Below, piece after piece: positions 22,674 through 57,467 of a DNA stretch of 64,000 nt. Under the pieces are notes generated by a model. It ran no database searches. It saw only the letters and a program-made list of their open reading frames with translations, and had not been told where the DNA came from. Origin of the DNA: Flavobacteriales bacterium (GTDB lineage: Bacteria; Bacteroidota; Bacteroidia; UBA4408); NCBI GenBank assembly GCA_040383485.1, contig JBEIDK010000002.1, positions 7,766 through 71,765 on the forward strand, in the 5' to 3' direction. Made by a program: the position numbers and the translations under genes. Position 1 is the stretch's first letter. The number at the start of each line of letters is the position of its first letter.

Positions 22674-22712
22674 AATTAGGATTCTATGTTTTTTTGGGGT
22701 AAAAGTAATTAA

Positions 22713-22720
22713 CAAAATTA
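22713..22720 (-). promoter_or_regulatory. candidate -7 box TAATTTTG for the giant adhesin gene
   Basis: The plus strand reads caaaatta, which is TAATTTTG on the minus strand. It lies ~40 nt upstream of the ATG at 22673 and overlaps the alternative ATG at 22715. Confidence 0.4.
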
Positions 22721-36815: not shown

Positions 36816-37415
36816 ATGTTAAGATATTATAAAATATATGGATTATATGGATTGATTAGACTGTTTAGGGATAAATTCTTCACGTATTTTTACTATCCAA
36901 ATGCTAGAATAATCAGACTGCCTTTTTACATAAGAGGAAAAAAAGGTATAAGAGGGGCCAAATATCTTACAACTGGAATAAATTTAAGAATTGATATTAT
37001 TTCAAGAAAAAATTTCACTCCAACATTACAAATTGGAGACAATGTACAATTTAATGATTATGTTCATATAGCAGTAGCTAAAGGAGTTTTTATAGGAGAT
37101 AATACATTAATTGCTTCAAAAGTTTTTATTTCTGACCACAATCACGGAAATTATGCTAACGAAAATCAATCAAACCCGAATACTCCTCCAATTGAGAGAG
37201 AGTTGTTTTCTAAAGAAGTACATATTGGAAATAATGTTTGGATAGGTGAATTTGTATCTGTTTTACCTGGTGTTACAATTGGCGAAGGTTCAATAATTGG
37301 TTCAACCAGTGTAGTATCTAAAGATATTCCAGCGTTTTGTATTGCAGTTGGATCTCCAGCTAAAGTGATTAAAACGTATGACAAGGATACGAATAAATGG
37401 GTTAATGAAATTTAA
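36816..37415 (+). CDS. left-handed beta-helix (hexapeptide) O-acetyltransferase, WcaF/maltose-acetyltransferase-like
   Basis: 199 aa with hexapeptide repeats ([14 protein letters not shown]...[19 protein letters not shown]...[31 protein letters not shown]). Confidence 0.75.
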
Positions 37416-40049: not shown

Positions 40050-40655
40050 ATGTATAAAAAATATATAAAAAGTATATTTGATTTTAGTATCGCTTTTGTA
40101 GTTTTCTTTTTTTTGTTACCTGTATTCGTGATTGTGCTTGTTGGTTTGTATGTAGCTAATCAAGGCAAACCTTTCTTTTTTCAAATACGTCCAGGTAAAA
40201 ATGAAAAAACATTCAAAATTATTAAGTTCAAAACGATGAATGATAATAAGAATAGTGATGGAATTTTACTTTCTGACGCGCAACGTTTAACAAAAATTGG
40301 TAACTTTGTAAGGAAAACATCAATAGACGAATTACCTCAATTAATAAATGTATTGAAAGGAGAAATGAGCTTAATAGGCCCAAGACCTTTATTGCCGGAA
40401 TATTTGACTTTATATAATGAAACTCAAAAGAGAAGGCATGAGGTTAAACCTGGAATTACAGGTTGGGCGCAAGTAAACGGTCGTAATGCAATTAGTTGGG
40501 AACAAAAATTTGAATTTGATGTTTGGTATGTAAATCATGTTTCTTTTTTACTCGATTGTAAAATTGTATATTTAACAATAAATAAAGTTTTTAAACGGGA
40601 AGGTATAACTTCAGAAAATTCAGTTTCAGCAGAAGCTTTTAAAGGAAGAAATTAA
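40050..40655 (+). CDS. PglC-type (small monotopic) phosphoglycosyl transferase / bacterial sugar transferase
   Basis: 201 aa. N-terminal KSIFDF plus a re-entrant helix, then PFFFQIRPGKNEKTFKIIKFKTM, the catalytic IDELPQL and GPRPLLPEY. Confidence 0.85.
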   Translation: MYKKYIKSIFDFSIAFVVFFFLLPVFVIVLVGLYVANQGKPFFFQIRPGKNEKTFKIIKFKTMNDNKNSDGILLSDAQRLTKIGNFVRKTSIDELPQLINVLKGEMSLIGPRPLLPEYLTLYNETQKRRHEVKPGITGWAQVNGRNAISWEQKFEFDVWYVNHVSFLLDCKIVYLTINKVFKREGITSENSVSAEAFKGRN

Positions 40656-40661
40656 TAATAT

Positions 40662-41306
40662 ATGCAAGATATAATTATTATTGGGGCTAGTGGTCTGGGT
40701 AAAGAGGTTGCTTATCATATTAAATCTATAAATAAGATAAACCCAAGCTTTAATGTAGTGGGTTTTATAGATGATAATTCTTCTATACTCAATAACGAAA
40801 TAATTTATGGGATAAAAGTTATTGGAAATCTTAATGATCTTATGAATAATAAATTTGATGTAAAAAATATTTGCATAGCTATAGCTGACAATAATATTCG
40901 CTTTTCAATTGTTGAAAAATTAAAGCATATTAACTTTATTTTTCCGAATATTATTGATCCTTCGGTTAATTTTGATTCTTCTAACAGCATAGGTTATGGT
41001 AATATTATTGGTCATGGTGTTTTGATGACTTGTAATATCTCTTTAGGTAATTTCAATATTTTAAACGGGTCATCAGGTTTTGGTCATGATATAACAATAA
41101 GTGATTTTAATTTATTTGGCCCTAGAACATCTATTTCAGGATGTGTGAAAATCGGAAGTTTGAATACTTTTAATTTAAACTCGTCAATTATTCAGAATTT
41201 AACAATAGGTAATGGGAATACTATAAATTTACATTCTTGTTTGTTCAAAAGTATAAAAGATGACGGAGTCTATTTTGGTGTTCCAGCGATGAAACAAAAA
41301 TTTTAA
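40662..41306 (+). CDS. PglD/NeuD-family sugar N-acyltransferase (Rossmann-like N-domain + hexapeptide beta-helix)
   Basis: 214 aa. Contains IIIIGASGLGKEVA...VVGFIDDN..., then hexapeptide turns ending in GVPA. Confidence 0.75.
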   Translation: MQDIIIIGASGLGKEVAYHIKSINKINPSFNVVGFIDDNSSILNNEIIYGIKVIGNLNDLMNNKFDVKNICIAIADNNIRFSIVEKLKHINFIFPNIIDPSVNFDSSNSIGYGNIIGHGVLMTCNISLGNFNILNGSSGFGHDITISDFNLFGPRTSISGCVKIGSLNTFNLNSSIIQNLTIGNGNTINLHSCLFKSIKDDGVYFGVPAMKQKF

Positions 41307-41326
41307 TAATAAATAAATAAATAATT

Positions 41327-41554
41327 ATGACAGCAGAGAATTTTATTAAAGATTTACAAGAAGAAGTGTTTATGGAAACAGAGATTTCTTTAATTACACT
41401 TGAAACAAATTTTAAAGATCTAGATGAGTGGGATTCATTAACAGCATTATCATTAATTGCTCATTTTGACATGAATTTAGGTAAAAAAATATCAGGTGAT
41501 CAAATAAAAAATGCTGTGTTTATTCAGGATTTATATAATTTAGCTATTGCATAA
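41327..41554 (+). CDS. acyl carrier protein (ACP-1)
   Basis: 75 aa, acidic, four-helix size. The phosphopantetheine site is the DSL motif (LDEWDSLTALSLI). Confidence 0.75.
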   Translation: MTAENFIKDLQEEVFMETEISLITLETNFKDLDEWDSLTALSLIAHFDMNLGKKISGDQIKNAVFIQDLYNLAIA

Positions 41555-42606
41555 TGTTTACAGTAAAAGGGGTAAAATTAAGTTCTATTGTTGGTGTTGC
41601 TCCGGCTTATACCGAAGATAATTTGACTAATCCAATCTTCAATGATTCTGAGGATGCTGAGAAATATGTAAAGACTGTTGGAGTTCGTTATAGAAGAGTA
41701 ACCGACGAAAATACTTGTACTGCAGATTTATTTGTACCCGCTTTCAACAAACAAATAGAGTTGTTGAACTGGGACAAAAGCGAGGTTGGGATTCTTATAG
41801 TTATAACCCAAACTCCAGAATATGTTTCGCCTTTACAAAGTATTATTTTACAGGATCGTTTAGGATTAGAAAAAACATGTTTATGTATTGATGTGCCTTT
41901 GGGATGTAGTGGCTATATTTACGGGAGTTTTTTGATATCTACTTTGATGCAGGCGCATAATATAAAAAAAGGAATTTTATTAACAGGTGATACCTTAACT
42001 AAACAAGCTTCAAAAAGAGACAGAAGTACACAGCCGTTATTTTCTGATGCAGCAACATCGACAGCTTTTGAATTGGATAAAACTGCATCAGATATGTTAT
42101 TTGACTTAGGTAATGATGGTTCCGGTTTTGAAAATATTATGGTAAAAGATGGAGGATATCGCAATCGTTTTTCTGAAGAATCATTGAAATACGTTGATAA
42201 AGGAGAAGGAGTATGTTTGCGGGGAATAGATACAATTATGATAGGTATGGATGTGTTTTCATTTGCAATATCAACAGCCCCGAAAACAGTTAATCATTTA
42301 ATTAGTCAATATAATTTAGATTTTGACAGTTTAGATTATTTTGTATTTCATCAGGCAAACATGTTTTTGAATGAGATGATTCGAAAGCGATTGAAACTAC
42401 CAGTAGATAAAGTTCCATATTCCTTATACGATTATGGAAATTCAGCTTCTGCTACTATTCCAATTACAATACTAGATAAAATTCAAAATGAAATTAAAGA
42501 AAAGCCATTAAAAATGATTTTTTCAGGTTTTGGAGTCGGTTTGTCCTGGGGAGCCATGTATATAGAAACCAACAATGTAGTTGTTACGCCAATAATTCTC
42601 GTATAA
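41554..42606 (+). CDS. KASIII (FabH-like) 3-oxoacyl-ACP synthase / acyltransferase, copy 1
   Basis: 350 aa with a Cys-His-Asn triad: PLGCSGYIYG, FVFHQANMF, YGNSASATIP. The start overlaps the ACP stop (TAATG). Confidence 0.85.
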   Translation: MFTVKGVKLSSIVGVAPAYTEDNLTNPIFNDSEDAEKYVKTVGVRYRRVTDENTCTADLFVPAFNKQIELLNWDKSEVGILIVITQTPEYVSPLQSIILQDRLGLEKTCLCIDVPLGCSGYIYGSFLISTLMQAHNIKKGILLTGDTLTKQASKRDRSTQPLFSDAATSTAFELDKTASDMLFDLGNDGSGFENIMVKDGGYRNRFSEESLKYVDKGEGVCLRGIDTIMIGMDVFSFAISTAPKTVNHLISQYNLDFDSLDYFVFHQANMFLNEMIRKRLKLPVDKVPYSLYDYGNSASATIPITILDKIQNEIKEKPLKMIFSGFGVGLSWGAMYIETNNVVVTPIILV

Positions 42607-42607
42607 T

Positions 42608-43705
42608 ATGATACAAAAACTAAAACCAATTCATTACACTAACAGAGAATATTTCGACAAAGAAATTTTAGATATTTTCGAAAATAATTGGCAATTTGCT
42701 TGTATGAAATCTGAACTTTCAGAAAGATTTAGCTATTTTGTTGTTGAATATGGTAATAAATCCTATTTCGTTACAAATGCTGGAAAAGATGGTATACGTG
42801 CATTTAAAAATGTATGTTCACACCGTGCAAATAAAATATTTTTGGATGATTTTGGTAAGAGACCAATAATGTGTTTATATCACAATTGGACTTATAACAG
42901 TGAAGGAAAGCCAATTAATGCTTTTGCAAAAGATTTTTTTGAAACACCAGAAGAATCAGATTTGTTATTAGAACAATATGAAGTTCAAATTGTAGGGGAG
43001 TTTGTTTTTGTAAATGTAGGAAATTCTAAAATAACAATTGAGGAACAATTAGGCGAATTTCATAATAAATTGATTGAAATATCAAATGCCTTAGGAGTAA
43101 AAATTACTTATGACTGTAATTTGCATAAAGCAAATTGGAAGTTATTAGTAGAGAATGTTTTGGAATGTTATCATTGTTTACCGGTTCATAAAAATTCCTT
43201 GGTAGAGCGTCTTGGAGTTGGGCTAAAGCCTTTTGTGAAGTTTGAATTTTTCAACGGAAATTCCTCTGGTCATTTACCTATTGAAAATAATCAAGTTTCA
43301 GTCAAAAGAAAAAAAATACTAAATTACCTTGATAAGAGAGAATTTAAACATGATTCATATTATCATTTATTTATTTATCCAAATTTATTCATTTCATCAA
43401 CAGAAGGAATTTCTTTTTACATTGGCCATGCATTGCCTAATAATTTCTGCGAGACAAATCTTCGAACCCGTTATTTTGAATGTAAAATAAAAAATATTGA
43501 GGAATATAGAAATTATCAGGATTTTTTAAATTCTGATATTGTTAATTTCGGAAATGAAATTCTAAATGAAGACAAAATAATCATTCAGAATGTTCAAAAA
43601 GGATTGGAAATAAGTAATAAAAGTTTATATCTAAACAAAGAAGAGTTTAGGATAAAAGAATTTCAAGAACATTATTGTTTACAAATAAATGCGTATGATT
43701 TTTAA
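42608..43705 (+). CDS. Rieske [2Fe-2S] non-haem-iron oxygenase, alpha-subunit type
   Basis: 365 aa. The Rieske motif is CSHRANKIF-x-CLYHNW (CxH-x16-CxxH). The mononuclear iron motif is NWKLLVENVLECYHCLPVH. Confidence 0.8.
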   Translation: MIQKLKPIHYTNREYFDKEILDIFENNWQFACMKSELSERFSYFVVEYGNKSYFVTNAGKDGIRAFKNVCSHRANKIFLDDFGKRPIMCLYHNWTYNSEGKPINAFAKDFFETPEESDLLLEQYEVQIVGEFVFVNVGNSKITIEEQLGEFHNKLIEISNALGVKITYDCNLHKANWKLLVENVLECYHCLPVHKNSLVERLGVGLKPFVKFEFFNGNSSGHLPIENNQVSVKRKKILNYLDKREFKHDSYYHLFIYPNLFISSTEGISFYIGHALPNNFCETNLRTRYFECKIKNIEEYRNYQDFLNSDIVNFGNEILNEDKIIIQNVQKGLEISNKSLYLNKEEFRIKEFQEHYCLQINAYDF

Positions 43706-44450
43706 TAACAAATTAGATGTTAATAATAAAAACATCTTAATTACAGGCGCGACATCGGGTATAGGTTTTGCAACATCACAACTGTTAATAAATTTAGGAT
43801 GTTCACTTTATGTAGTTGGAAGAAATAGAGTAAAACTTGATGAACTCGAAACTTTGGGAAAAGGAAAAGTGGTTTCTTTACAAGCTGATTTAAGAAATAT
43901 TAATGATATAAAAATGATTATAGATACAATTTCTAAAATTGATGGTTTTGTTCATTCTGCAGGTGTAGTAAATAGTATTCCTTTGCAATTTATTAATCAT
44001 GAATCTCTTGAAATTGAGCGTTCTTTAAATTATGATGCTTTTGTGTTTTTAACTCAAAATTTAGTTAAGAAGAAAAAAATTAATTCTGATGGATCAATAG
44101 TTTCTCTTGCTTCAATTGCTGCTCACTTTGGTATAATTGGTAGTTCAATTTATTGTGGTAACAAAGCAGCTTTAATAGCTACATCAAAAGTTTTCGCAAA
44201 AGAGTTAGCAAATAAAAGGATTAGAGTTAATACAGTTTCACCTGGAATTGTCCGGACGGAAATGGTCAACAATGCTGAGGGACAACATTTAACAAAGGAT
44301 GCTCTTATTTTGGATGAACAAAAATACCCTTTGGGATATGGTGAGCCAGATGATGTCGCTTATTGTATTACTTTTTTACTTTCAGATGCAAGTAAATGGA
44401 TTACAGGCCAAGATATTATTTTAGATGGTGGTAGAACTTGTTATGTTTAA
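43689..44450 (+). CDS. short-chain dehydrogenase/reductase (FabG-like ketoreductase), copy 1
   Basis: 253 aa. Contains ITGATSGIGFA (TGxxxGIG) and SIYCGNKAAL (YxxxK). It overlaps the upstream gene by 17 nt. Confidence 0.85.
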   Translation: MRMIFNNKLDVNNKNILITGATSGIGFATSQLLINLGCSLYVVGRNRVKLDELETLGKGKVVSLQADLRNINDIKMIIDTISKIDGFVHSAGVVNSIPLQFINHESLEIERSLNYDAFVFLTQNLVKKKKINSDGSIVSLASIAAHFGIIGSSIYCGNKAALIATSKVFAKELANKRIRVNTVSPGIVRTEMVNNAEGQHLTKDALILDEQKYPLGYGEPDDVAYCITFLLSDASKWITGQDIILDGGRTCYV

Positions 44451-44461
44451 AAGTAAATAGT

Positions 44462-45514
44462 ATGGAAAAAATATTTAAAAATATTTCAATTTCTGGTATT
44501 TCTACAGTTGTTCCTGAGACTGTTTTGAATTTGGAAACATTAAGTTCTGTTTATGGGAATGATGATGTTAGGAAAATTATATCTACTACAGGTATTAAAG
44601 AAGTCCGTATTGCAGACAATGAGACAACAGCTTCGGACTTATGTTTTCAAGCAGCACAACATTTGATTAAGCAATTGGACATAGATAAGAACGAAATAGA
44701 TGGATTAATATTTGTTTCTCAGACTAACGATTATAGTTTGCCGCAAACAAGTAATGTTTTACAAAGTCGATTAGGGCTTAATGAAAATGTTTTTTGCTTA
44801 GACATCAGATTAGGATGTAGCGGTTATGTTGTAGGTTTATTTCAGGCTTCGTTATTAATCAATTCTGGTGCATGTAAAAATGTTTTGGTTTTAGCAGGTG
44901 ATACTACATCAAAAATAATAAATCCAAAAGATAAGTCTTTAAGAATGGTTTTTGGTGACGCTGGTTCGGCTACTTTTGTTAAAAGTGGTTCTGATGATAT
45001 AGGCTTTAAAATCCATAATAAGGGGTCAGGATTTTCCGAATTAATTATTCCTGCAGGGGGGTTTAGAAAACCAATTTCAAGCCTAACTTCCAATGAAATC
45101 AGTGATAAAGACGGCAATATTAGATCAGAAAATGATTTGTACATGAATGGTGCCGAAATCTTTAATTTCGCAATTAATAATGTACCTACTTTAATTGATG
45201 ATTTAATAAAAATTGCAAAATGGTCTAAAACAGATGTTGATTTATTTTTATTCCATCAAGCTAATAACTTTATGGTTGAATATTTAAAACGTAAATTGAA
45301 AATAATTACTGAGAAAGTGCCTTTAGGTGTAGAAAATTATGGAAATACAGGACCGTGCTCAATACCGCTACTTTTAAGTCATATATCTGGGAAACAATTT
45401 TCTTCGGACAAAGTTATAATGTGTGGTTTTGGAGTAGGATTATCATGGGCTGGCTGTTATACAAATTTATCAAAAACAAAATTTTTTAAAACAATTGATT
45501 ATATAAAAGATTAA
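44462..45514 (+). CDS. KASIII (FabH-like) 3-oxoacyl-ACP synthase / acyltransferase, copy 2
   Basis: Track ORF is 44438..45514. The ATG at 44462 gives MEKIFKNISISGIS. Triad: RLGCSGYVVG, FLFHQANNF, YGNTGPCSIP. Confidence 0.85.
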   Translation: MEKIFKNISISGISTVVPETVLNLETLSSVYGNDDVRKIISTTGIKEVRIADNETTASDLCFQAAQHLIKQLDIDKNEIDGLIFVSQTNDYSLPQTSNVLQSRLGLNENVFCLDIRLGCSGYVVGLFQASLLINSGACKNVLVLAGDTTSKIINPKDKSLRMVFGDAGSATFVKSGSDDIGFKIHNKGSGFSELIIPAGGFRKPISSLTSNEISDKDGNIRSENDLYMNGAEIFNFAINNVPTLIDDLIKIAKWSKTDVDLFLFHQANNFMVEYLKRKLKIITEKVPLGVENYGNTGPCSIPLLLSHISGKQFSSDKVIMCGFGVGLSWAGCYTNLSKTKFFKTIDYIKD

Positions 45515-45516
45515 AA

Positions 45517-45744
45517 ATGAAAGAATTATTATTATTAAAAATAAATGAAGTTTTAGAGGGCAAAAGCATGCCAATTTTAACAGACATTAATTCAGATACA
45601 ATTTTGAGAGATGGGTTAGGGTTGGATTCTTTTGATTTAGCTGAATTAACTGTTAGAATAGAAGAAGAAACAGATATTGATATATTTTCAAACGGTATTG
45701 TAACAACTGTAGGTGAAATATTACATATATTGGAGAATAATTAA
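45517..45744 (+). CDS. acyl carrier protein (ACP-2)
   Basis: 75 aa, acidic, with a Ser motif (GLDSFDLAELTV). Confidence 0.7.
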   Translation: MKELLLLKINEVLEGKSMPILTDINSDTILRDGLGLDSFDLAELTVRIEEETDIDIFSNGIVTTVGEILHILENN

Positions 45745-45758
45745 ACAAAAAATCTCCT

Positions 45759-46991
45759 ATGTTTTATATTAACGAAAACAATTCAGAATATTTTAGCTAC
45801 AAGGAGCTTGTAATCTACTTAAACGAGTCAGGAAGTATTATTACAAACCCTTACAAAACTTCTACTTTAGATTTGTTTAAAAATTTGATTAAAGCTTTGA
45901 TTCATAACAAAGATTTAATTTTATTAGATAATGATTTTACAGATACTGAAATAATTTCGCTTATTGGAGAAAAATATATTGAAAATGTTGTCTCAGTAGA
46001 TAGTTTAGGATTTGATAGTTTTAAATCATATTTACAGTTAATAATTGAATCTAAAAGTAAAATTACTATTTATACTTCTGGTACAACAGGCCTTCCAAAA
46101 AAAGTGGTTCATACTATTAGATCATTGACAAGAGAAGTTAAGACTGGATTAATTTTTGAGTCATCAATTTGGGGTTTAGCTTTCAATCCTACTCACATGG
46201 CTGGTCTTCAGGTGTTTTTCCAAGCATTATTTAACAATAACACCTTAGTTGATTTATTTAATATTGATACAAAAACCGTTAAAGAATCAATAATAAAATA
46301 TAAAATTTCTCATATTTCAGCTACACCAACATTTTACAGATTACTAAATAGTAAAGATATTATTTTTAATGGTGTTAAGTCTGTTACTTTAGGAGGTGAG
46401 AAGTCGGAAGATAATTTGTACAGGATAGTTAAAAGAATGTTTCCTTTTGCAAAAGTTAAAAACATTTATGCATCAACTGAGGCAGGATCCTTATTGAGTT
46501 CTGATGGTGAATTTTTTTATATTCCAGAGCGTTTGAAGGATAAAATTGTTATTAAAGAAAATGTACTTTATATTAATGAGTCATTATTAGGTAAAATGTC
46601 GGATCTTTTGATAGAAAAAGGCTGGTATTGTAGTGGCGATGTTATCGAATTTAAAAGTGATTCCCTTGATTATTTCAAATTGATTGGTAAATCAAATGAA
46701 ATGATAAATGTTGGAGGATATAAAGTAAACCCGCATGAAGTAGAATTAGAACTTAGGTGTATCGATGGAATTGACAATGCTTTTGTATTTGGTAAGGCTA
46801 ATTCTGTATTAGGAAATCTTATATGTGCTGAGATTGTTTTAGAAAAGGGCATTGAAATAGAAGAGACAAAAATCAAAGATATTTTAAGGGAAAAATTGCA
46901 ACAATTCAAAATTCCACGTAAAATATTTTTTGTTGATAAATTAAATTTAAATAGAACAGGAAAAATAAGTAGATCAAATGTTACAAAATAA
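45759..46991 (+). CDS. AMP-dependent ligase (adenylate-forming acyl-ACP/CoA ligase), short form
   Basis: 410 aa. Contains the AMP-binding core IYTSGTTGLPKKVVHT, YASTEAG, and GDV...GYKVNPHEVE...PR..TGKI. Confidence 0.8.
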   Translation: MFYINENNSEYFSYKELVIYLNESGSIITNPYKTSTLDLFKNLIKALIHNKDLILLDNDFTDTEIISLIGEKYIENVVSVDSLGFDSFKSYLQLIIESKSKITIYTSGTTGLPKKVVHTIRSLTREVKTGLIFESSIWGLAFNPTHMAGLQVFFQALFNNNTLVDLFNIDTKTVKESIIKYKISHISATPTFYRLLNSKDIIFNGVKSVTLGGEKSEDNLYRIVKRMFPFAKVKNIYASTEAGSLLSSDGEFFYIPERLKDKIVIKENVLYINESLLGKMSDLLIEKGWYCSGDVIEFKSDSLDYFKLIGKSNEMINVGGYKVNPHEVELELRCIDGIDNAFVFGKANSVLGNLICAEIVLEKGIEIEETKIKDILREKLQQFKIPRKIFFVDKLNLNRTGKISRSNVTK

Positions 46992-47712
46992 AAATATTTT
47001 AATTACTGGGTGTTCCAGAGGACTTGGTTTGGAAATTGTTAAAGAACTTTTACTTCAAGGTGCAAATGTATATGGTGTTAGTAGAACTCTTTCTCCGGAG
47101 TTTAATTTGTTAACTGAACAATATAGTGGAAAAGTTTTTTTTAATAAGTTTGACTTAATAGCTACAAATGAGGTTGAAGTAAAAATTTTTAAAGAATGGC
47201 TAAACAATAAAATTGTCATTCATGGTTTTGTTAATAATGCAGCTGTAGCATATGATGACATTATTACAAATATGAATGTAGTTTCACTTGAATCAATGTT
47301 TAAAATTAATGTATTTAGTCCTTTAATTGCTGTAAAAGCGGTTTTGCGTAATATGATATTTAATCGAACTAAAGGTGGTATTGTTCATGTTTCATCTATT
47401 AGCGTTCATACTGGTTATAAAGGTTTGTCGATGTATGCCGGCTCTAAAGGTGCTTTAGAAGCTTTTTCGAAAAACACAGCAAGAGAATGGGGTGAAAAGC
47501 AAATAAGAAGTAATTGTCTTGTTGCCGGATTTATGGAGACTGAAATGAGCGGTACACTTTCGAATGAACAAAGAGATCGAATATTTAAAAGAACTTCGTT
47601 AAAAGTTCCAACAACATTAAATTCGGTTGCCAAGACAGTATGTTTTTTATTGTCAGATGCTGCGGAATCAATAACGGGTCAAAATATTCATGTTGATTCA
47701 GGTACAATTTAA
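46978..47712 (+). CDS. short-chain dehydrogenase/reductase (ketoreductase-like), copy 2
   Basis: 244 aa. Contains ITGCSRGLGLEI and SMYAGSKGAL (YxxxK). It overlaps the ligase by 14 nt. Confidence 0.85.
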   Translation: MLQNKNILITGCSRGLGLEIVKELLLQGANVYGVSRTLSPEFNLLTEQYSGKVFFNKFDLIATNEVEVKIFKEWLNNKIVIHGFVNNAAVAYDDIITNMNVVSLESMFKINVFSPLIAVKAVLRNMIFNRTKGGIVHVSSISVHTGYKGLSMYAGSKGALEAFSKNTAREWGEKQIRSNCLVAGFMETEMSGTLSNEQRDRIFKRTSLKVPTTLNSVAKTVCFLLSDAAESITGQNIHVDSGTI

Positions 47713-47725
47713 ATAATTTCATGTG

Positions 47726-48862
47726 ATGTTTAATAAAATATGGCTCTCCTCACCGCACATGGGAGGCACAGAGCAAAACTACGTACACGAAGCGTTTGAA
47801 GCCAACTGGGTGGCACCACTAGGTCCTAATGTAAATGGTTTAGAACAAGATTTAGAACACTATTTGGGGAATAATGCTCACGTAGGCGCTCTGAGTTCAG
47901 GAACAGCCGCCATTCATTTAGGATTGATTTTATTAGGCGTACAAGCGGGAGATGAGGTTATTTGTCAAAGCATGACTTTTTCAGCTTCTGCCAACCCCAT
48001 TTTATATTTAGGAGCAACCCCTGTTTTTATAGATAGTGAAGCACAAACTTGGAACATTTGCCCAGATGCTTTAGAGCAAGCCATTCAAGATCGTATATCA
48101 AAAGGTAAAAAACCAAAAGCCATAATTGCGGTGCATTTATATGGGGTACCTTATCAAATAGAAGCCGTTAGAGCTATTGCAGATAAATATCAAATACCCA
48201 TTTTAGAAGATAGTGCTGAGGCTTTAGGGAGTTCTTACAAAGGACAAAAATGCGGTACTTTTGGAGATATTGGGGTGCTTTCCTTCAATGGTAACAAAAT
48301 TATTACTACATCTGGTGGAGGAGCAATTGTCACTAAAACAGCTACTCAAAAAGAGAAAGCCGTTTTCTATGCTACACAATCACGAGATAATGCACCACAT
48401 TATCAACACAGCCATATTGGTTACAATTACCGCATGAGTAATATTTGTGCTGGTATTGGTAGAGGTCAAATGGAAGTCTTAGACGAACATGTTGCTTTGA
48501 GAAGACAAATGCACGATTTTTATGTAGATATATTTGCTTCCATCGAAGGAGTCGAAGTTTTTTCTGTTCCTGACGATAATTATTTTGCTAATTATTGGTT
48601 GAGTGCCATTACTATAGATACCACAAAAACCAATGGTATAACTGCTGATACTTTACGCTTAGCCCTTGACGCTGAAAACATTGAATCACGCCCTCTGTGG
48701 AAACCGATGCATTTGCAACCTATTTTCTCCAACTATCCGTATTACGGAAGCAACGTAGCCGAAACTCTATTTGAAAACGGCCTGTGTTTGCCTTCCGGGT
48801 CTAATTTATCAGATAAGGATAGATATAGAATAGAAAAACTAATTGAGCAGGTGTTTGGGTAG
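47726..48862 (+). CDS. DegT/DnrJ/EryC1/StrS-family PLP aminotransferase (PglE/EpsN-like UDP-4-keto-6-deoxy-HexNAc 4-aminotransferase)
   Basis: The track start at 47723 is GTG, and the ATG at 47726 is preferred. Contains LSSPHMGGTEQNYVHEAFEANWVAPLGPNV and the PLP lysine region (SFNGNKIITT). Confidence 0.9.
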   Translation: MFNKIWLSSPHMGGTEQNYVHEAFEANWVAPLGPNVNGLEQDLEHYLGNNAHVGALSSGTAAIHLGLILLGVQAGDEVICQSMTFSASANPILYLGATPVFIDSEAQTWNICPDALEQAIQDRISKGKKPKAIIAVHLYGVPYQIEAVRAIADKYQIPILEDSAEALGSSYKGQKCGTFGDIGVLSFNGNKIITTSGGGAIVTKTATQKEKAVFYATQSRDNAPHYQHSHIGYNYRMSNICAGIGRGQMEVLDEHVALRRQMHDFYVDIFASIEGVEVFSVPDDNYFANYWLSAITIDTTKTNGITADTLRLALDAENIESRPLWKPMHLQPIFSNYPYYGSNVAETLFENGLCLPSGSNLSDKDRYRIEKLIEQVFG

Positions 48863-48901
48863 TCAATGAGTCAATGTGCCAATGAGTTGATTAGGGAATA
48901 A
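48862..48901 (+). repeat. octamer array (5 units) starting on the last base of the stop codon
   Basis: Units: gtcaatga gtcaatgt gccaatga gttgatta gggaataa. The TAG stop is at 48860-62. Confidence 0.8.
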
Positions 48902-49444
48902 ATTTTAATTTTATAAATAGTAATAATTGATTATCCTTATTTATTTTTGAATTGAGCGAAGCGACTTTATATATTTTACAATACTCTTTGTGTTCTTGGT
49001 GCCTTCCTAGTGCCCTTTGTGGTTAAGCTGTTTACCGAGTGACAAACAAATTGGACATAATAATCCACTTATAAGCACTTTAACGTACTATAACAACGCA
49101 CTTAAACTTTATTATATACCTTAAATGTTAAAAAAAAATAGTTAATGAGCCAATAATGTTATTTAGATATATAATAACGAATGATGAATTTTAACCACAT
49201 AGAAACATAGATTTAAAAAATAAAAGTAAGATATAGTAATAGTACTATTATTCACATAGTTTAATAGATTATTCTTACACGTACTCGAATAGAGCGAAGC
49301 GACTTCTTATATTTTCTTATATGCCTTATATGTTTAAATAAAATAGCAACGAGCCAATTTGCTTCAAAGTAAAACCGTAAGTAGCAAAGCTAAAATCGTA
49401 ACTCGCATCACAAACAACTAACAACGAATCACGAACAAAAAAAT

Positions 49445-49993
49445 ATGACTATAGAAACCACCTCCATAAACGATCTAATCATCATCAATCCTTCTGTTTT
49501 TGAAGACGAACGCGGCTATTTTATGGAGTCGTTTAATCAACAAAAATTACAAGAAGCAGGCATTCACATCCCTTTTGTACAAGATAACCAATCGTTTTCC
49601 AAACAAGGGACATTAAGAGGTTTGCATTATCAAAATCCGCCGTATGCACAAACCAAATTAGTGCGGGTATTGCATGGTGAAATTATGGATGTAGCCTTAG
49701 ATCTTAGAAAGAACTCTCCAACTTACGGGCAACATTTTGCAATTAAGTTATCGGCTGAGAACAAAAAGCAATTATTGATTCCGCAAGGTTTTGCACACGG
49801 CTTTTCGGTGATCAGTGAAACCGCTGTCGTGTTGTATAAATGCGATCAATTCTATAACAAAGCCAGTGAAGGCGGTATTCGTTTTGATGATCCTACATTG
49901 AACATTGACTGGGGCATCGATTTAAAAACAGCTATTGTTTCAGATAAGGATATAGAGTTGCCAAATTTTGCTGATTGTAATAGTGGATTTTAA
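49445..49993 (+). CDS. rmlC: dTDP-4-dehydrorhamnose 3,5-epimerase
   Basis: 182 aa. Contains FEDERGYF.E, RGLHYQ, KLVRVL.G...DVA.DLR..SPTYG and QL.IP.GFAHGF. Confidence 0.92.
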   Translation: MTIETTSINDLIIINPSVFEDERGYFMESFNQQKLQEAGIHIPFVQDNQSFSKQGTLRGLHYQNPPYAQTKLVRVLHGEIMDVALDLRKNSPTYGQHFAIKLSAENKKQLLIPQGFAHGFSVISETAVVLYKCDQFYNKASEGGIRFDDPTLNIDWGIDLKTAIVSDKDIELPNFADCNSGF

Positions 49994-49996
49994 TTA

Positions 49997-50050
49997 GCCA
50001 ATGAGGCAATTTGTCAATCAGCCGATGTGCCACTAGTCAATAGCCAATAC
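49997..50050 (+). repeat. degenerate octamer array (~6 units) 3 nt after the rmlC stop
   Basis: Units: gccaatga ggcaattt gtcaatca gccgatgt gccactag tcaatagccaat. Confidence 0.7.
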
Positions 50051-50326
50051 TAAAGCATTGTGAAACTTAGTGAAAACATTGTGAAACGTTGTGATACAAA
50101 AAGAGTTTAGCGTTAGGGATTGTGAGTTAAGAGATAAAATTCTAAACTTATATGTACTTATACCTAGTGAAGCGCCTTTTTAATATTACCTTATATGACT
50201 TATATGTTAATAAATATAACTAGGAGTCAATTGCCAATAAAAAAAATGTGCAACTTATTGTTAACTTTGCAAACGTTGTGATACAAAAAGAGTAAAGCGT
50301 TAACAATTACATATAACAAATAAACT

Positions 50327-50351
50327 TTGCGCCCTAGCGACTTCGCGGCAA
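50327..50351 (+). promoter_or_regulatory. GC-rich conserved box / potential stem-loop 5 nt upstream of the rmlD ATG
   Basis: TTGCGCCCTAGCGACTTCGCGGCAA. TTGCGC can pair with GCG(G)CAA around a 12-nt loop. It is a paralogue of the box at 34327. Confidence 0.45.
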
Positions 50352-50356
50352 AAAAA

Positions 50357-51220
50357 ATGAAAAAAATACTAGTAACAGGCGCAACAGGCCAAGTAGGAAG
50401 TGAATTGAAGGTATTGGCACCTCGCTATTCCCAATTGGATTGGGTATTTGCCGATCGTTCGGTTTTGGATTTGAGTGATTTGAAGGCGATTTCCCAAGTA
50501 TTAGATGAAATACAACCCCAAATCATCATCAATTGTGCCGCTTATACCGCAGTAGATAAAGCAGAAACAGAAACCGAATTAGCAGATATTTTAAATCATA
50601 AAGCGGTGGCGGTTTTGGCACAATGGAGTCATTCTAATGGATGTCAATTAATACACATATCAACCGATTATGTATTTGACGGAAAATCAAATATAGCTCT
50701 GACGGAAGAGGCCTCAACTGGACCAATCAATGTCTATGGACAAACTAAATTAGCTGGAGAGCACGCCTGTCTTCGTGAAAACCCTAATGCCATTATCATA
50801 AGAACATCGTGGGTGTATTCTAAATTTGGTACCAATTTTGTCAAAACCATGAGTAAATTTATGCAGGAACGTGACAGCCTGAATGTCGTGAACGATCAAA
50901 TAGGAAGTCCCACTTATGCTGCTGATTTGGCAAAGGCTATTCTAACCATTATTTCGCATCCGAATTGGCAAGCGGGAATTTATCATTATTCCAATGAAGG
51001 AGAAATCAGTTGGTACGAATTCGCTTTAGCCATTCAAGAAATAGGAGGTTTTCAATGCGAAATAACGGGCATTCCGAGTATCGATTATCCAACGCCTGCT
51101 CGCAGACCAAAATATTCCTTGTTGGACAAATCAAAAATTGCAACTACCTTTGCCGTAGAAGTGCCCGAATATCGTGAGAGTTTGCAGAAATGCATGAAGT
51201 TAATTCGCGTTAATTCGTGA
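50357..51220 (+). CDS. rmlD: dTDP-4-dehydrorhamnose reductase
   Basis: The track ORF starts at TTG 50327 inside the GC-rich box. The ATG at 50357 gives MKKILVTGATGQVG. Also contains STDYVFDG and YGQTKLAGE. Confidence 0.9.
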   Translation: MKKILVTGATGQVGSELKVLAPRYSQLDWVFADRSVLDLSDLKAISQVLDEIQPQIIINCAAYTAVDKAETETELADILNHKAVAVLAQWSHSNGCQLIHISTDYVFDGKSNIALTEEASTGPINVYGQTKLAGEHACLRENPNAIIIRTSWVYSKFGTNFVKTMSKFMQERDSLNVVNDQIGSPTYAADLAKAILTIISHPNWQAGIYHYSNEGEISWYEFALAIQEIGGFQCEITGIPSIDYPTPARRPKYSLLDKSKIATTFAVEVPEYRESLQKCMKLIRVNS

Positions 51221-51240
51221 AATTAGAAAAATTAATAAAA
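51200..51240 (+). repeat. ~4 units of a degenerate 10-nt repeat (TTAATTCGCG-type) spanning the rmlD stop
   Basis: Units: ttaattcgcg ttaattcgtg aaattagaaa aattaataaa. The TGA stop is at 51218-20, and the repeat ends 5 nt before the rmlB ATG. Confidence 0.7.
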
Positions 51241-51245
51241 TAAAA

Positions 51246-52295
51246 ATGAAAAAAATACTAATCACCGGTGGCGCCGGATTTATTGGATCTCATGTGGTGA
51301 GACGATTTGTGAATCAGTATCCTAATTACCACATCTATAATTTAGATGCCTTGACCTATGCCGGGAATTTAGAAAATATCGCTGATATTGAAAAAGCACC
51401 TAATTATACCTTTGTGAAAGGTAATATTGTTGATGCTCCTTTTATCGACGCCTTATTTGCAGAACATCAGTTTGATGGGGTGTTGCATCTAGCAGCCGAA
51501 TCACACGTGGATCGCTCCATTACTGATCCGTTGGCGTTTGTGAAAACCAATGTAATAGGTACCATGAATTTATTGAATGCCGCTAAAACGATTTGGAAAG
51601 ACAATTTTGAAGGAAAACGTTTTTACCACATCAGTACCGATGAGGTGTATGGAAGTTTAGGTACAGAGGGTTTGTTTACCGAAACAACAGCCTATGATCC
51701 TAATTCACCTTATTCGGCTTCCAAAGCAAGTTCAGATCATTTTGTACGTGCCTATGGTGAAACCTATGGTTTGCCCTATGTAATTACAAATTGTTCAAAC
51801 AATTACGGCCCGTTTCATTTTCCAGAAAAGTTGATTCCTTTGTTCATCAATAATATAATCAATAATAAACCATTACCGGTGTATGGCGATGGAAAATACA
51901 CCCGCGATTGGTTGTTTGTTGAGGATCATGCCGTAGCCATTGATTTGGTTTTTCATGAAGGAAAAAATCATGATACTTACAATATTGGAGGTTTTAACGA
52001 ATGGCAAAACATTGATTTAGTAAAATTATTGTGTCAAATAATGGACGAAAAGTTAGGTCGTGCAGCCGGAACTTCTGCGCAATTGATTACCTATGTGAAA
52101 GACCGTCCCGGTCACGATTTACGTTATGCTATTGATGCCACTAAAATCAATACAGAATTAGGTTGGAAGCCTTCAGTAACCTTTGAAGAAGGTCTAGAAC
52201 GTACTGTAAACTGGTACTTAGACAATCAAAAATGGTTGGATAATGTGACTTCAGGAGCCTATGCGAGTTATTATGAGAAGCAATATTCGAATTAA
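51246..52295 (+). CDS. rmlB: dTDP-glucose 4,6-dehydratase
   Basis: 349 aa. Contains ITGGAGFIGSH, HLAAESHVDRS, STDEVYG and YSASKASSDH. Confidence 0.95.
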   Translation: MKKILITGGAGFIGSHVVRRFVNQYPNYHIYNLDALTYAGNLENIADIEKAPNYTFVKGNIVDAPFIDALFAEHQFDGVLHLAAESHVDRSITDPLAFVKTNVIGTMNLLNAAKTIWKDNFEGKRFYHISTDEVYGSLGTEGLFTETTAYDPNSPYSASKASSDHFVRAYGETYGLPYVITNCSNNYGPFHFPEKLIPLFINNIINNKPLPVYGDGKYTRDWLFVEDHAVAIDLVFHEGKNHDTYNIGGFNEWQNIDLVKLLCQIMDEKLGRAAGTSAQLITYVKDRPGHDLRYAIDATKINTELGWKPSVTFEEGLERTVNWYLDNQKWLDNVTSGAYASYYEKQYSN

Positions 52296-52325
52296 CACGA
52301 ATTACGCGAATTAAACAAATTGAAA
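52283..52325 (+). repeat. ~4 units of a degenerate 9-10-nt repeat (ATTNNNCGA-type) spanning the rmlB stop
   Basis: Units: atattcga attaacacga attacgcga attaaacaa attgaaa. The TAA stop is at 52293-95. Confidence 0.65.
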
Positions 52326-52721
52326 ATGAATGACCCCTACAAAATAATTTATAAAGACGAAAGCTATGCTATTGTTGGTGCTTGTATGAAAGTGCATTGT
52401 GCCTTGGGACCGGGATTTTTGGAAGCAGTGTATGAAGAGGTTTTAGAAAAAGAGTTTCAAGTCCAAAAAATTCCTTACCAACGACAAGTGAAATTAGATT
52501 TGTATTATGAAGGTGAAAAATTGAAAAAGCAATACAGGGCAGATTTTATTTGTTATGATAAAATTATTGTTGAATTAAAAGCAGTTCATCAGATGCCTTC
52601 GGTGTTTTATGCGCAACTGCAGAATTATTTAAAATGCTCAAATATGGAGTTGGGAATGTTGATTAATTTTGGCACACCATCCTTAACTTATAAAAGAATA
52701 GTAAACTCAAAAAATAGATAA
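52326..52721 (+). CDS. GxxExxY-family protein (PD-(D/E)XK-fold small protein)
   Basis: The ATG at 52326 is preferred over the TTG at 52320. Contains the signature [13 protein letters not shown], then ...[18 protein letters not shown]...QLQNYLK...GMLINFG. Confidence 0.8.
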
Positions 52722-52764
52722 ATTCGCCAAATTCGCGAAATTAGCGAAATTCGTAAAATTAGAA
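52720..52764 (+). repeat. 5 units of a 9-nt repeat AAATT(C/A)G(C/T)N filling the whole spacer to rmlA
   Basis: Units: aaattcgcc aaattcgcg aaattagcg aaattcgta aaattagaa. The first unit overlaps the TAA stop (52719-21). Confidence 0.8.
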
Positions 52765-52767
52765 CAC

Positions 52768-53628
52768 ATGAAAGGAATTATATTAGCCGGTGGATCCGGA
52801 ACAAGATTACATCCACTTACCTTAGCGGTGAGTAAACAATTAATGCCAGTATACGATAAACCGATGATTTACTATCCTTTATCGGTATTGATGATGGCAG
52901 GCATTCAAGAAATTTTAATTATTTCTACACCACATGATTTACCCCATTTTAAACGTTTGTTAGGAGATGGTAGCAATATTGGTTGTACTTTTTCGTATGC
53001 CGAACAAGCAGTTCCTAACGGATTGGCGCAGGCCTTTGTAATTGGAGAGGAATTTATAGGAAACGATTCTGTAGCTTTAATTTTAGGTGATAATATTTTC
53101 TTTGGTACAAACTTACAAGATTTGTTGGTTTCTAATCAAAATCCAGAAGGTGGAGTAGTATTTGCTTACCACGTTTCCGATCCTGAGCGTTACGGTGTGG
53201 TGGAATTTGATGGCCAATTCAATGCCGTTTCAATTGAAGAAAAACCAACCGAACCTAAATCAAATTATGCGGTACCTGGATTGTATTTTTATGATAATTC
53301 AGTAGTAAACATTGCAAAAAATATTCAACCATCGGCCCGTGGCGAATATGAAATCACCGATGTAAATAAAGTATATTTAAAGCAAGGTAACTTAAAAGTA
53401 GGCGTGCTTAATAGAGGAACAGCTTGGCTAGATACTGGTACTTTTAATAGTTTGATGCAAGCAGGGCAATTTGTACAAGTAATTGAAGAACGTCAAGGAT
53501 TAAAAATTGGTTGTATCGAAGAAATTGCTTGGCGCAAAGGCTTTATTACCAATGAACAATTACTGGAACAAGCCACAATTTTAGAAAAATCGGGTTACGG
53601 ACAATATTTGAAATCGTTGGTGAAGTAA
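52768..53628 (+). CDS. rmlA: glucose-1-phosphate thymidylyltransferase
   Basis: 286 aa. Contains [34 protein letters not shown] and LGDNIF. Confidence 0.95.
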
Positions 53629-53653
53629 ATTTTGTTCTATAGTATAAAAAGTG

Positions 53654-53680
53654 AAGGAGTTTTTTTAGACTCCTTTTTTT
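53654..53680 (+). terminator. rho-independent terminator after rmlA
   Basis: AAGGAGT (53654-60) pairs with ACTCCTT (53669-75) and is followed by a T7 run. This is the first convincing terminator on the + strand since 32.7 kb. Confidence 0.6.
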
Positions 53681-56918: not shown

Positions 56919-57467
56919 ATGGAACTATTGGTTGGAGGTTTAGTAGGTATACTAGTGTTAGTTTTCATAACCGCAATAGATACCCAGTCTAATGGTTTTT
57001 TTAAACAAGAACGCATAGGACAATATGGTAAGCCATTTCTAATTTATAAATTGAGAACGTTACACTTACAAACCTGTAAAATATCGGTATGGGGTAAGTT
57101 GTTACGCACTTCTAAATTAGACGAAATGCCTCAATTCCTTAACATCTTAAAAGGCGAAATGACCTTAGTGGGTCCGCGCCCCGATGTGTCTGGATATGCC
57201 GATTTACTGCAAGGCGAAGACCGTATTATTTTAACGTTAAAACCGGGCATCACCGGCTTAGCTTCCTTAAAATACCGTAACGAAGAACAGCTTTTAGCCC
57301 TGCAACCCAATCCCCAACACTACAACGATGAGGTCATCTGGCCCGATAAAGTAAGAATTAATAAATGGTATGCCCAAAACCGCACATTGGTAATGGACTT
57401 ACAAATTCTTTTTTACACCCTAGTTCCTATACATTTTGATGTAGATTCTTTTATGGGTGATAGGTAA
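56919..57467 (+). CDS. second PglC-type phosphoglycosyl transferase, N-terminally short (possibly truncated or frameshifted)
   Basis: 182 aa. Contains FFKQERIGQYGKPFLIYKLRTL, the catalytic LDEMPQF and GPRPDV. It lacks the N-terminal K/R-x-x-D segment. An in-frame stop lies 18 nt upstream, so the ORF cannot be extended. Confidence 0.7.
   Translation: MELLVGGLVGILVLVFITAIDTQSNGFFKQERIGQYGKPFLIYKLRTLHLQTCKISVWGKLLRTSKLDEMPQFLNILKGEMTLVGPRPDVSGYADLLQGEDRIILTLKPGITGLASLKYRNEEQLLALQPNPQHYNDEVIWPDKVRINKWYAQNRTLVMDLQILFYTLVPIHFDVDSFMGDR

Follow-up and report, generated by a model that had tools for sequence, protein, structure and literature searches.

A composite acyl-carrier cassette with a Rieske oxygenase in a Flavobacterium polysaccharide locus and its predicted amino-sugar side chain

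What acyl group is a polysaccharide locus equipped to build when two condensing enzymes, two acyl carrier proteins (ACPs), an adenylating ligase and a Rieske oxygenase stand among its amino-sugar genes? To our knowledge, apart from acetyl and a handful of simple examples, the enzymology of N-acyl groups has not been worked out. The question is raised by a stretch of DNA of 64,000 nucleotides (the window), part of a 71.8-kb contig in the metagenome-assembled genome (MAG) of an uncultured Flavobacterium. Eleven open reading frames (ORFs), all on the + strand, occupy positions 40050–48862, as described in a first, sequence-only reading of this DNA, and their spacings are -17 to +20 nt, with four overlaps. 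They encode, in order, a PglC-type transferase, a PglD-like acyltransferase, ACP1, a 3-ketoacyl-ACP synthase III (KASIII-1), the Rieske oxygenase, a short-chain dehydrogenase/reductase (SDR1), KASIII-2, ACP2, a ligase of the ANL adenylate-forming type, SDR2 and a PglE-type aminotransferase. On balance, we think it probable that this cassette is a non-dehydrating mini assembly line resembling type II fatty acid synthase (FAS): a ligase-loaded starter would undergo two C2 extensions with ketoreduction and an extra oxygenation, and would then acylate N-4 of UDP-2-acetamido-4-amino-2,4,6-trideoxyglucose (UDP-QuiNAc4N).

Families were called with Pfam and NCBIfam profiles, and fold neighbours with PDB searches, AlphaFold2 (AF2) models and Foldseek. 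The profiles agree with the families named in the sequence-only reading. The gene arrangement is not due to chance, since >170 loci of other genomes and metagenomes show these gene sets again, in syntenic order. The scanned ORFs of the window yielded neither a hot-dog dehydratase nor a dedicated enoyl reductase, in line with the earlier claim, so each reduced keto group would stay as a hydroxyl.

The core idea, an ACP-borne polyhydroxyacyl chain transferred onto UDP-QuiNAc4N, is supported by this recurrent synteny and is already published for a five-gene version of the cassette. In Flavobacterium psychrophilum, the PglD homologue WfpG is predicted to move the 3,5-dihydroxyhexanoyl R1 group from WfpD, an ACP specific to the O-polysaccharide (Cisar, Bush & Wiens 2019, PMC6519341). 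Its proposed builders are the KASIII enzymes WfpC (333 aa) and WfpE (350 aa) and the ketoreductase (KR) WfpF, along a type-II-FAS-like route; the functions of wfpC–G were inferred bioinformatically, and the product, 3,5-dihydroxyhexanoyl, was solved (PMC6519341). The FlavoTyper preprint of 2026 equates R1 with exactly the five wfpC–G genes and describes further ACP/KASIII sets in other serotypes (10.64898/2026.09.14.751350). Differences in the R-group genes alter the antigenicity of the lipopolysaccharide in this species (PMC6519341).

The wfpC–G-type content (a dedicated ACP, two KASIII, a KR and a PglD-like protein, with no dehydratase or enoyl reductase) is found in the window. Both systems also have pglF and pglE leading to UDP-QuiNAc4N, and a PglC homologue as the initiating enzyme. 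Beyond this content, the window has genes for a Rieske oxygenase, a further ACP, an ANL ligase and a further SDR, and its second KASIII falls in a different clade. Since the five-gene set already explains 3,5-dihydroxyhexanoyl, the extra genes lead us to expect a product that differs in starter, length or oxygen. It is probably longer or more oxidised than 3,5-dihydroxy-C6.

Judged by alignment, the window is a composite of a cross-phylum module (PglD-like protein, ACP1, KASIII-1, Rieske oxygenase and SDR1) and a swapped-in block (KASIII-2, ACP2, ANL ligase and SDR2). Compared with the nearest non-identical module (loci L003/L004), the left part of the cassette is similar throughout: PglC 64%, PglD-like protein 59%, ACP1 73%, KASIII-1 80%, Rieske oxygenase 52% and SDR1 68% identity. 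KASIII-2 and the second KASIII of the same module share 38%. KASIII-2, together with the trio of ACP2, ligase and SDR2, fills the slot that the second KASIII has in the canonical module. The edges of the inserted block are sharp in Flavobacterium hydatis, which aligns with 80% nucleotide identity to exactly 45510–47714, that is, from ACP2 through SDR2. By this alignment, the trio is a discrete mobile block. Elsewhere, L092 has 92% nucleotide identity over 40662–48485 and differs in PglC and in the 3′ end of PglE, and L002 carries the same PglC/PglD pair with other upstream genes.

KASIII-2 (44438–45514) is 358 aa long when read from a TTG, but the ATG at 44462 is more likely to be the start; it yields a protein of 350 aa and is the one called on the identical contig L001. 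Its ACP_syn_III domains are nearest to canonical FabH models. Its catalytic triad is intact (GCSG, FHQAN and the Asn of YGNTG), as is that of KASIII-1, and both had been called correctly before. The top match (54.5%) is the KASIII directly upstream of the ACP, ligase and SDR genes in a Bacteroidales locus (L090). Uncorrected for phylogeny, identities to KASIII-2 are 44–57% for 21 trio-adjacent KASIIIs and 31–43% for 67 KASIIIs of loci that have no ligase, with no overlap between the two ranges. On these values, KASIII-2 is part of a clade whose members were seen nowhere but immediately upstream of the trio.

ACP2 (45517–45744, 75 aa; PP-binding, 6.3e-06) has Ser38 within the motif tSFDLAELTV, conserved in 59 unique orthologues. 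The ligase (45759–46991, 410 aa) has AMP-binding and AMP-binding_C domains. Its A3 motif TSGTTGxPK (residues 106–114) and A10 Lys402 are invariant, and its N-terminal domain is about 80–90 residues shorter than that of canonical members. The AF2 model shows a two-domain ANL fold, with MenE, CBAL and 4CL as the nearest PDB entries. Sequence, profile and Foldseek matches were generic to ANL enzymes (MenE and the 4-chlorobenzoate, 4CL, oxalate, malonate and 4-hydroxybutyrate ligases) and are not diagnostic of the substrate. SDR2 (46978–47712, 244 aa) is FabG-like, with TIGR01830 as its top NCBIfam match (1.7e-44, below cutoff), and it is the most conserved member of the trio, with 58–64% identity across trios from gut, rumen and freshwater.

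A metagenome scan with a ligase profile yielded 80 loci, mostly from gut and rumen, and with L088–L091 the set comprises 83 ligase-bearing loci. All 83 carry a SDR2-like gene with the ligase, and ACP2 lies directly upstream of the ligase in 71 of them; most loci in which ACP2 was not detected are contigs that end just upstream of the ligase. The trio occurs in a nested series of modules. At the simplest level, it stands between PglC-PglD and PglE-PglF (L162/L163). Next, ACP1, SDR1 and the second KASIII (KAS2) precede it in the order PglC-PglD-ACP1-SDR1-KAS2-trio-PglE (complete in L146, with KAS2 directly upstream of the trio in 12 more loci). A first KASIII (KAS1) is then added in L137 (PglD-ACP1-KAS1-SDR1-KAS2-trio), and finally the Rieske gene joins this set in the window, L092 and L093. 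Among the 48 ligase loci with at least 3.5 kb of upstream sequence, 32 have no KASIII immediately upstream of the trio, 13 have KAS2 and the trio, one has KAS1, KAS2 and the trio, and two also have the Rieske gene. The window is thus the most elaborate member seen of the series. The simplest loci suggest that the trio by itself is enough to supply a PglD-like transferase, and the others suggest that it primes KASIII-2. We infer from this synteny that the trio, which occurs by itself, with PglD as its sole partner or beside one or two KASIII genes, is a portable supplier of acyl-ACP.

The trio was also met in other settings. In gut and rumen Bacteroidales (L103:6634-13141 and L155:6069-10894), it lies in nonulosonic-acid loci or beside GNAT acyltransferases. 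The nonulosonic-acid genes that adjoin it encode DegT, PglD/NeuD-like, PseB-like, NeuB and CMP-transferase proteins, and there the trio may supply the non-acetyl N-acyl groups of sugars of the pseudaminic or legionaminic type. In F. hydatis (L088:9761-11954), a lone trio with 79–86% protein identity to that of the window is placed between a Gly_rich_2 gene and genes for outer membrane β-barrel proteins, which suggests either an autonomous role or a parked mobile block.

The Rieske gene (42608–43705) encodes an alpha-only Rieske non-heme-iron monooxygenase of 365 aa with Rieske and Ring_hydroxyl_A domains. The CxH...CxxH ligands, the 2-His-1-carboxylate iron site and a CntA-type bridging Glu are all present, and C70, H72, C89, H92, E186, H189, H194 and D322 are invariant in 15 homologues of 36–85% identity. 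In Foldseek searches with the AF2 model (pLDDT, the model confidence score, 88), CntA was the top match (TM score 0.78), followed by Stc2. With the quaternary-ammonium monooxygenases CntA, Stc2 and GbcA, the enzyme shares the alpha-only architecture, the bridging Glu in ECYHCxPxH and the nearest fold. These relatives are hydroxylases of small polar aliphatic substrates, acting for example at C4 of carnitine, a 3-hydroxybutyrate derivative. However, identity to the group is only about 20% over the structural alignment, with the sequence-level match limited to residues 7–195, and the GbcA model scores 114.8 bits (cutoff 670) and covers residues 9–196 only. The genomic contexts also differ: acyl-ACP and glycan genes surround the window gene, which no partner reductase adjoins, whereas the CntA group is found in amine catabolism.

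A Rieske gene is present in 33 of the 87 non-duplicate module loci, in three gene orders, and every occurrence in the set from GTDB genomes (29/29) has KAS, SDR, ACP or PglD-like genes as its flanking genes. Cultured organisms with a Rieske-bearing module include F. johnsoniae CI04, F. galactosidilyticum, Chryseobacterium piscicola DSM 21068, Sphingomonas sp. Ag1 and M. extorquens (GCA_000021845.1); Mucilaginibacter gossypiicola and Pedobacter changchengzhani have related modules that lack the Rieske gene. Six further Rieske loci, sampled independently at 36–52% identity, come from Bacteroidota (L003), Pedobacter (L005), Methylorubrum extorquens (L007), Sphingomonas sp. Ag1 (L091) and metagenomes (L172, L173). 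In all six, the gene lies beside KASIII-ACP-KASIII-SDR and a hexapeptide acyltransferase. The sugar genes vary, with PglE/PglF in some loci and rml genes plus DegT in L091 and L173, and no sugar-nucleotide pathway gene (DegT, rml or PglF) was called within 8 kb of the M. extorquens module. The KASIII, ACP, SDR and acyltransferase neighbours thus stay the same as the sugar pathway around them changes from locus to locus, which is most simply explained if the oxygenase acts on the acyl chain and not on the sugar. The clade is large (>350 proteins) and uncharacterised, and a literature search on Rieske oxygenases in O-antigen or ACP cassettes found nothing specific.

Two of these loci have additional genes. 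In the Pedobacter MAG (L005:12864-13940), a Fer2 ferredoxin gene (- strand) and a gene of the metallo-β-lactamase (MBL) fold (Lactamase_B) follow the module; no other locus seen offered the Rieske enzyme a candidate electron donor. In L089, too, the module is followed by an MBL-fold gene. L172:5709-9537 (Logan run SRR11678143) has two divergent Rieske genes and a methyltransferase gene within its KASIII-ACP-KASIII-SDR module, a gene set that implies still more heavily tailored acyl chains. The locus is of the polysaccharide type, with rml genes, glycosyltransferases and a Wzx-type flippase.

The elongation module to the left of the trio consists of ACP1, KASIII-1 and SDR1. ACP1 (41327–41554, 75 aa) has no Pfam match and one weak NCBIfam ACP match. 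Its W-x-S37 is conserved at ≥90% in 90 unique orthologues, and it is 73% identical to the L003 ACP. The phosphopantetheine serines of the two ACPs are thus both conserved, with the small correction that the ACP2 motif is DSF and not DSL. KASIII-1 (41554–42606, 350 aa; ACP_syn_III and ACP_syn_III_C), 80% identical to its L003 counterpart, has invariant Cys118 (GCSG), His266 (FHQAN) and Asn296. SDR1 (43689–44450, 253 aa; adh_short_C2, 1.1e-44, KR domain) has TGATSGIG and Y155xxxK motifs and 68% identity to that of L003, and 81 of the 87 module loci have it. TGxxxGxG and YxxxK are intact in both SDRs, and both score below the cutoff of 297.75 for the FabG equivalog TIGR01830 (SDR2 152.3, SDR1 124.2). 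The two KASIIIs likewise score below the FabH cutoffs (153.6/196.1 against 292 for TIGR00747; 180.6/229.6 against 249 for NF006829). By these profiles, KASIII-1 and KASIII-2 are FabH-like paralogues, not housekeeping FabH.

A KASIII-1 profile scan of one genome per GTDB species returned 569 relatives, of which the best 80 had their loci detailed. Nearly all of these 80 loci are from Bacteroidota; they represent the trio-less version of the module and have ACP-KASIII-SDR-KASIII, usually plus PglD-like and DegT genes. F. psychrophilum is not among the best 80. Its wfpC–G set matches the trio-less modules in content and protein sizes, as compared by the sizes and annotations of Table S1 only (PMC6519341). 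A 4.3-kb contig (L008, JAFMBQ010000397.1) binned as ‘Algoriphagus sp.’ has 84% nucleotide identity to window positions 40448–44716, and is either a mis-binned Flavobacterium contig or the result of a recent transfer between orders.

The sugar enzymes are encoded at both ends of the cassette and downstream of it, and their top solved-structure matches bear out the bacillosamine-type pathway claimed earlier. The PglC-type small monotopic phosphoglycosyl transferase (40050–40655, 201 aa; Bac_transf, 1.4e-62) matches over its full length the C. jejuni N,N′-diacetylbacillosaminyl-1-phosphate transferase PglC (8g1n, 1.2e-69). The DegT/PglE-type aminotransferase (47723–48862; DegT_DnrJ_EryC1, 3.3e-97), a pyridoxal phosphate enzyme, has C. 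jejuni PglE as its top PDB match (1o61/4ztc, 2.4e-90). At 55014–56903 (+), where it had been placed before, a membrane-anchored UDP-GlcNAc 4,6-dehydratase of PglF/CapD type with an N-terminal extension is encoded (629 aa; Polysacc_synt_2, 1.4e-111); its top PDB match is C. jejuni PglF/WlaL (5bju, 6.5e-72). Because these enzymes best match C. jejuni PglE, PglC and PglF, UDP-QuiNAc4N is well supported as the predicted acceptor. Directly after PglF lies a gene for a second small Bac_transf phosphoglycosyl transferase (56919–57467, 182 aa), and the locus thus encodes two initiating transferases; L003/L004 are alike in this respect (33% identity).

The predicted N-acyltransferase (40662–41306, 214 aa; PglD_N, 1.6e-13) is a left-handed β-helix protein of the PglD/VioB family. 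It scores 148.9 bits with TIGR03570 (NeuD-PglB-VioB family; cutoff 160.8), and VioB is the best PDB match (7txp, 1.5e-18), followed by PglB-ATD, PerB and PglD. The catalytic histidine, His142 in a GHD motif, is conserved in 64 unique orthologues. An ACP gene stands directly 3′ of the PglD-like gene in most module loci. The sequence-only reading had this enzyme use an ACP-bound chain. Donor specificity is not readable from sequence; the context argues for acyl-ACP, which is the most economical reading because the PglD-like gene adjoins a dedicated ACP in dozens of loci.

We propose the following route. By homology, PglF and PglE would make the UDP-4-amino sugar. The synteny of the trio suggests that the ANL ligase would adenylate a small free acid and load it onto ACP2, where the FabG-like SDR2 would reduce it. 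3-Hydroxybutanoyl groups are prevalent on such sugars. This, together with the FabG-like profile of SDR2, leads us to guess that the starter may be a 3-oxo or 3-hydroxy C4 acid. KASIII-2 would condense the ACP2-bound starter with malonyl-ACP1, SDR1 would reduce the new 3-keto group, and KASIII-1 would add a second C2 unit, with SDR1 again reducing. The CntA-like Rieske oxygenase would add one oxygen at an unactivated carbon of the chain. The PglD/VioB-like transferase would then move the chain from ACP1 to the 4-amino group of the sugar, and PglC would later transfer the finished acylated QuiNAc4N-phosphate to undecaprenyl phosphate. Phosphopantetheine, malonyl groups and electrons are assumed to come from housekeeping AcpS, FabD and a ferredoxin/reductase pair. 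The chain predicted from this route is longer than its starter by two C2 units and carries three or more oxygen functions; a C4 starter, for instance, would give an oxidised trihydroxy-C8 chain. Retention of the hydroxyls would fit the absence of dehydratase and enoyl reductase, as in the solved F. psychrophilum product.

Several points weigh against this assembly line. Neither the acid taken by the ligase nor the carbon targeted by the Rieske enzyme is readable from sequence or fold. A single turn for each KASIII, and an ACP2-bound primer and not acetyl-CoA for KASIII-2, are read from synteny. The locus has no FabD and no phosphopantetheinyl transferase, the window encodes no ferredoxin or reductase, and clustering of neighbour families over the 87 loci gave no consistent reductase or ferredoxin partner of the Rieske gene, the enriched clusters reflecting only synteny within the F. 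johnsoniae group. The F. hydatis trio is outside any glycan locus. Finally, the likeness to WfpC–G is one of published sizes and annotations.

How do other explanations fare? The 3,5-dihydroxyhexanoyl group of the sequence-only reading would arise from two acetate-primed rounds by two KASIIIs and two KRs, with ligase, ACP2 and Rieske oxygenase dispensable or redundant. Two intact KASIIIs, two SDRs, the lack of a dehydratase in the cassette and the rml genes in the locus are all compatible with it, and the homologous five-gene set is assigned that product in F. psychrophilum (PMC6519341). Yet this species makes the same acyl group with one KR and one ACP and with neither ligase nor Rieske oxygenase (PMC6519341 Table S1; 10.64898/2026.09.14.751350), and the window belongs to a different, uncultured Flavobacterium. 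Four conserved, translationally packed genes would be left roleless, including those for ACP2, the ligase and a Rieske enzyme with fully conserved cofactor ligands, and KASIII-2 falls in the trio-linked clade, not in the KASb clade of trio-less modules. We regard this explanation as distinctly improbable.

The cassette might instead make two products: ACP1, KASIII-1, the Rieske oxygenase, SDR1 and an acetyl-CoA-primed KASIII-2 would build the N-acyl chain, and the trio would supply a second acyl group to another acceptor, by O-acylation or through another transferase such as the hexapeptide enzyme at 36816–37415. The presence of that second hexapeptide transferase in the window speaks for such a division, as do the autonomy and portability of the trio, which is alone in F. 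hydatis and elsewhere beside GNAT, PglD/NeuD-like or nonulosonic-acid genes. Even so, the cassette has a single aminotransferase and a single PglD-like gene, the KASIII-2/trio block occupies the second-KASIII slot of the canonical module, and in 21 independent loci a gene of the specific KASIII clade immediately precedes ACP2, the clade never being seen without the trio; two products are, in our view, unlikely. A last alternative takes the Rieske enzyme off the acyl chain, so that it modifies the sugar or another product of the locus, or is inactive for want of a dedicated reductase. The window does lack a reductase and ferredoxin, and the nearest characterised relatives use free small molecules, not carrier-bound ones. 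Against this stand the constant KASIII, ACP, SDR and acyltransferase neighbours beside a varying sugar pathway, metal ligands that are invariant across 36–85% identity, and the two Rieske genes and methyltransferase inside the acyl module of L172. It appears very unlikely to us.

The ligase-primed assembly line also has partial counterparts outside Flavobacterium. The viosamine island of P. syringae pv. tabaci (vioA, vioB, vioS, vioR and acp) makes N-(3-hydroxybutyryl)viosamine (Yamamoto et al. 2011, PMC3927599), which is lost in ΔvioR and ΔvioB mutants as seen by mass spectrometry (PMC3927599). Like the window, the island combines a KASIII (VioS), a 3-oxoacyl-ACP reductase (VioR), an ACP and a VioB-type N-acyltransferase with a 4-amino-4,6-dideoxyhexose; unlike the window, it performs a single condensation, uses a dTDP-sugar for a flagellin glycan and has no ligase, second ACP or Rieske oxygenase. 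In Vibrio cholerae O1, N-tetronylation of perosamine by rfbK–O uses an ACP, an AMP-ligase-type enzyme and a hexapeptide acyltransferase to place a hydroxyacyl group on a 4-amino sugar. That system differs from the window in its LuxC/LuxE-like proteins and iron alcohol dehydrogenase, and has no KASIII elongation and no Rieske oxygenase. In enterobacterial flagellin glycosylation islands, Acp, a CaiC-type ligase and FabG co-occur in about 71 strains, which was read as a hint of a ‘liposugar’ (PMC4875605). Their likeness to the trio lies in these three functions, and no starter-loader model was offered for them (PMC4875605). Nothing specific came from our literature search on an ACP/ligase/reductase pathway to 3-hydroxybutanoyl groups. 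Whether such enzymology has been characterised, a point that the earlier reading left open, can be answered in part: it has been proposed bioinformatically in F. psychrophilum (PMC6519341) and addressed with mutants in P. syringae (PMC3927599), and no biochemical reconstitution was found in the literature. New here are the cross-phylum Rieske-bearing module, the reading of the trio as a portable loader that has a KASIII clade to itself, and the nested series of modules.

The cassette is embedded in a polysaccharide locus with a Wza-like exporter, a UpxY/NusG-like regulator, Wzz, an EpsG/Wzy-like polymerase and a glycosyltransferase of family GT2. It is markedly rich in AT, at 25–31% GC and with strong GC skew; the flanks have 34–37% GC. 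We also weighed a function in lipids or secondary metabolites, apart from the polysaccharide, and rejected it, because PglC and PglE bracket the cassette within a single locus of Wzx/Wzy type and homologous modules nearly always form part of glycan loci. The dTDP-L-rhamnose genes rmlC, rmlD, rmlB and rmlA follow at 49445–53628 (+), where Pfam agrees with the earlier assignment. A gene of the PD-(D/E)XK nuclease superfamily (52320–52721; PDDEXK_3, 1.3e-39) splits rmlB from rmlA. A terminator-like hairpin 3′ of rmlA (53653–53676) was the sole plausible signal from a promoter and terminator scan; the sigma-70 search, which does not cover Bacteroidota promoters, gave 100 matches compared with 102 in shuffled sequence.

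The border between the low-GC cassette and the rml block is a non-coding gap of 583 bp between pglE and rmlC (48863–49444). It contains two exact copies of GAGCGAAGCGACTT, at 48954 and 49292 (chance expectation 0.08), each followed by an AT-rich stretch resembling TATATTTT. The GAGCGAAGCGACTT copies may be promoter or regulatory sites that were duplicated, or the scar of a recombination event. The locus is flanked by two giant ORFs, at 3342–22715 (-; 6457 aa) and at 57736–63969 (+; 2077 aa); the second has an fn3 domain and a C-terminal Por_Secre_tail, a type IX secretion sorting domain.

The main value of these comparisons is the generation of hypotheses, the central concept being already in the literature. 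We tentatively extend it as follows, well short of confidence: a combinatorial ‘side-chain synthase’ kit spread across at least two phyla may diversify the N-acyl groups of surface amino sugars, by combining a portable loader, one or two non-dehydrating KASIII/KR units on a second ACP, and a CntA-like Rieske oxygenase acting on a carrier- or sugar-bound chain. If this is true, short polyhydroxyacyl chains would be a substrate class not earlier assigned to Rieske oxygenases, and the window would hold the most elaborate version of the kit, making an oxidised C8-type polyol acyl group that is undescribed on any polysaccharide. The comparisons also flag the Rieske clade and the ligase family (>5000 members) for biochemistry. 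The N-acyl groups carried by sugars of O-antigens, capsules and flagellins influence serotype and recognition by antibodies, and probably also by phages. For Flavobacterium, gut Bacteroidales, Sphingomonas and Methylorubrum, a rule set based on the trio, none, one or two KASIIIs and the presence or absence of the Rieske gene could predict the length and oxidation state of side chains from sequence.

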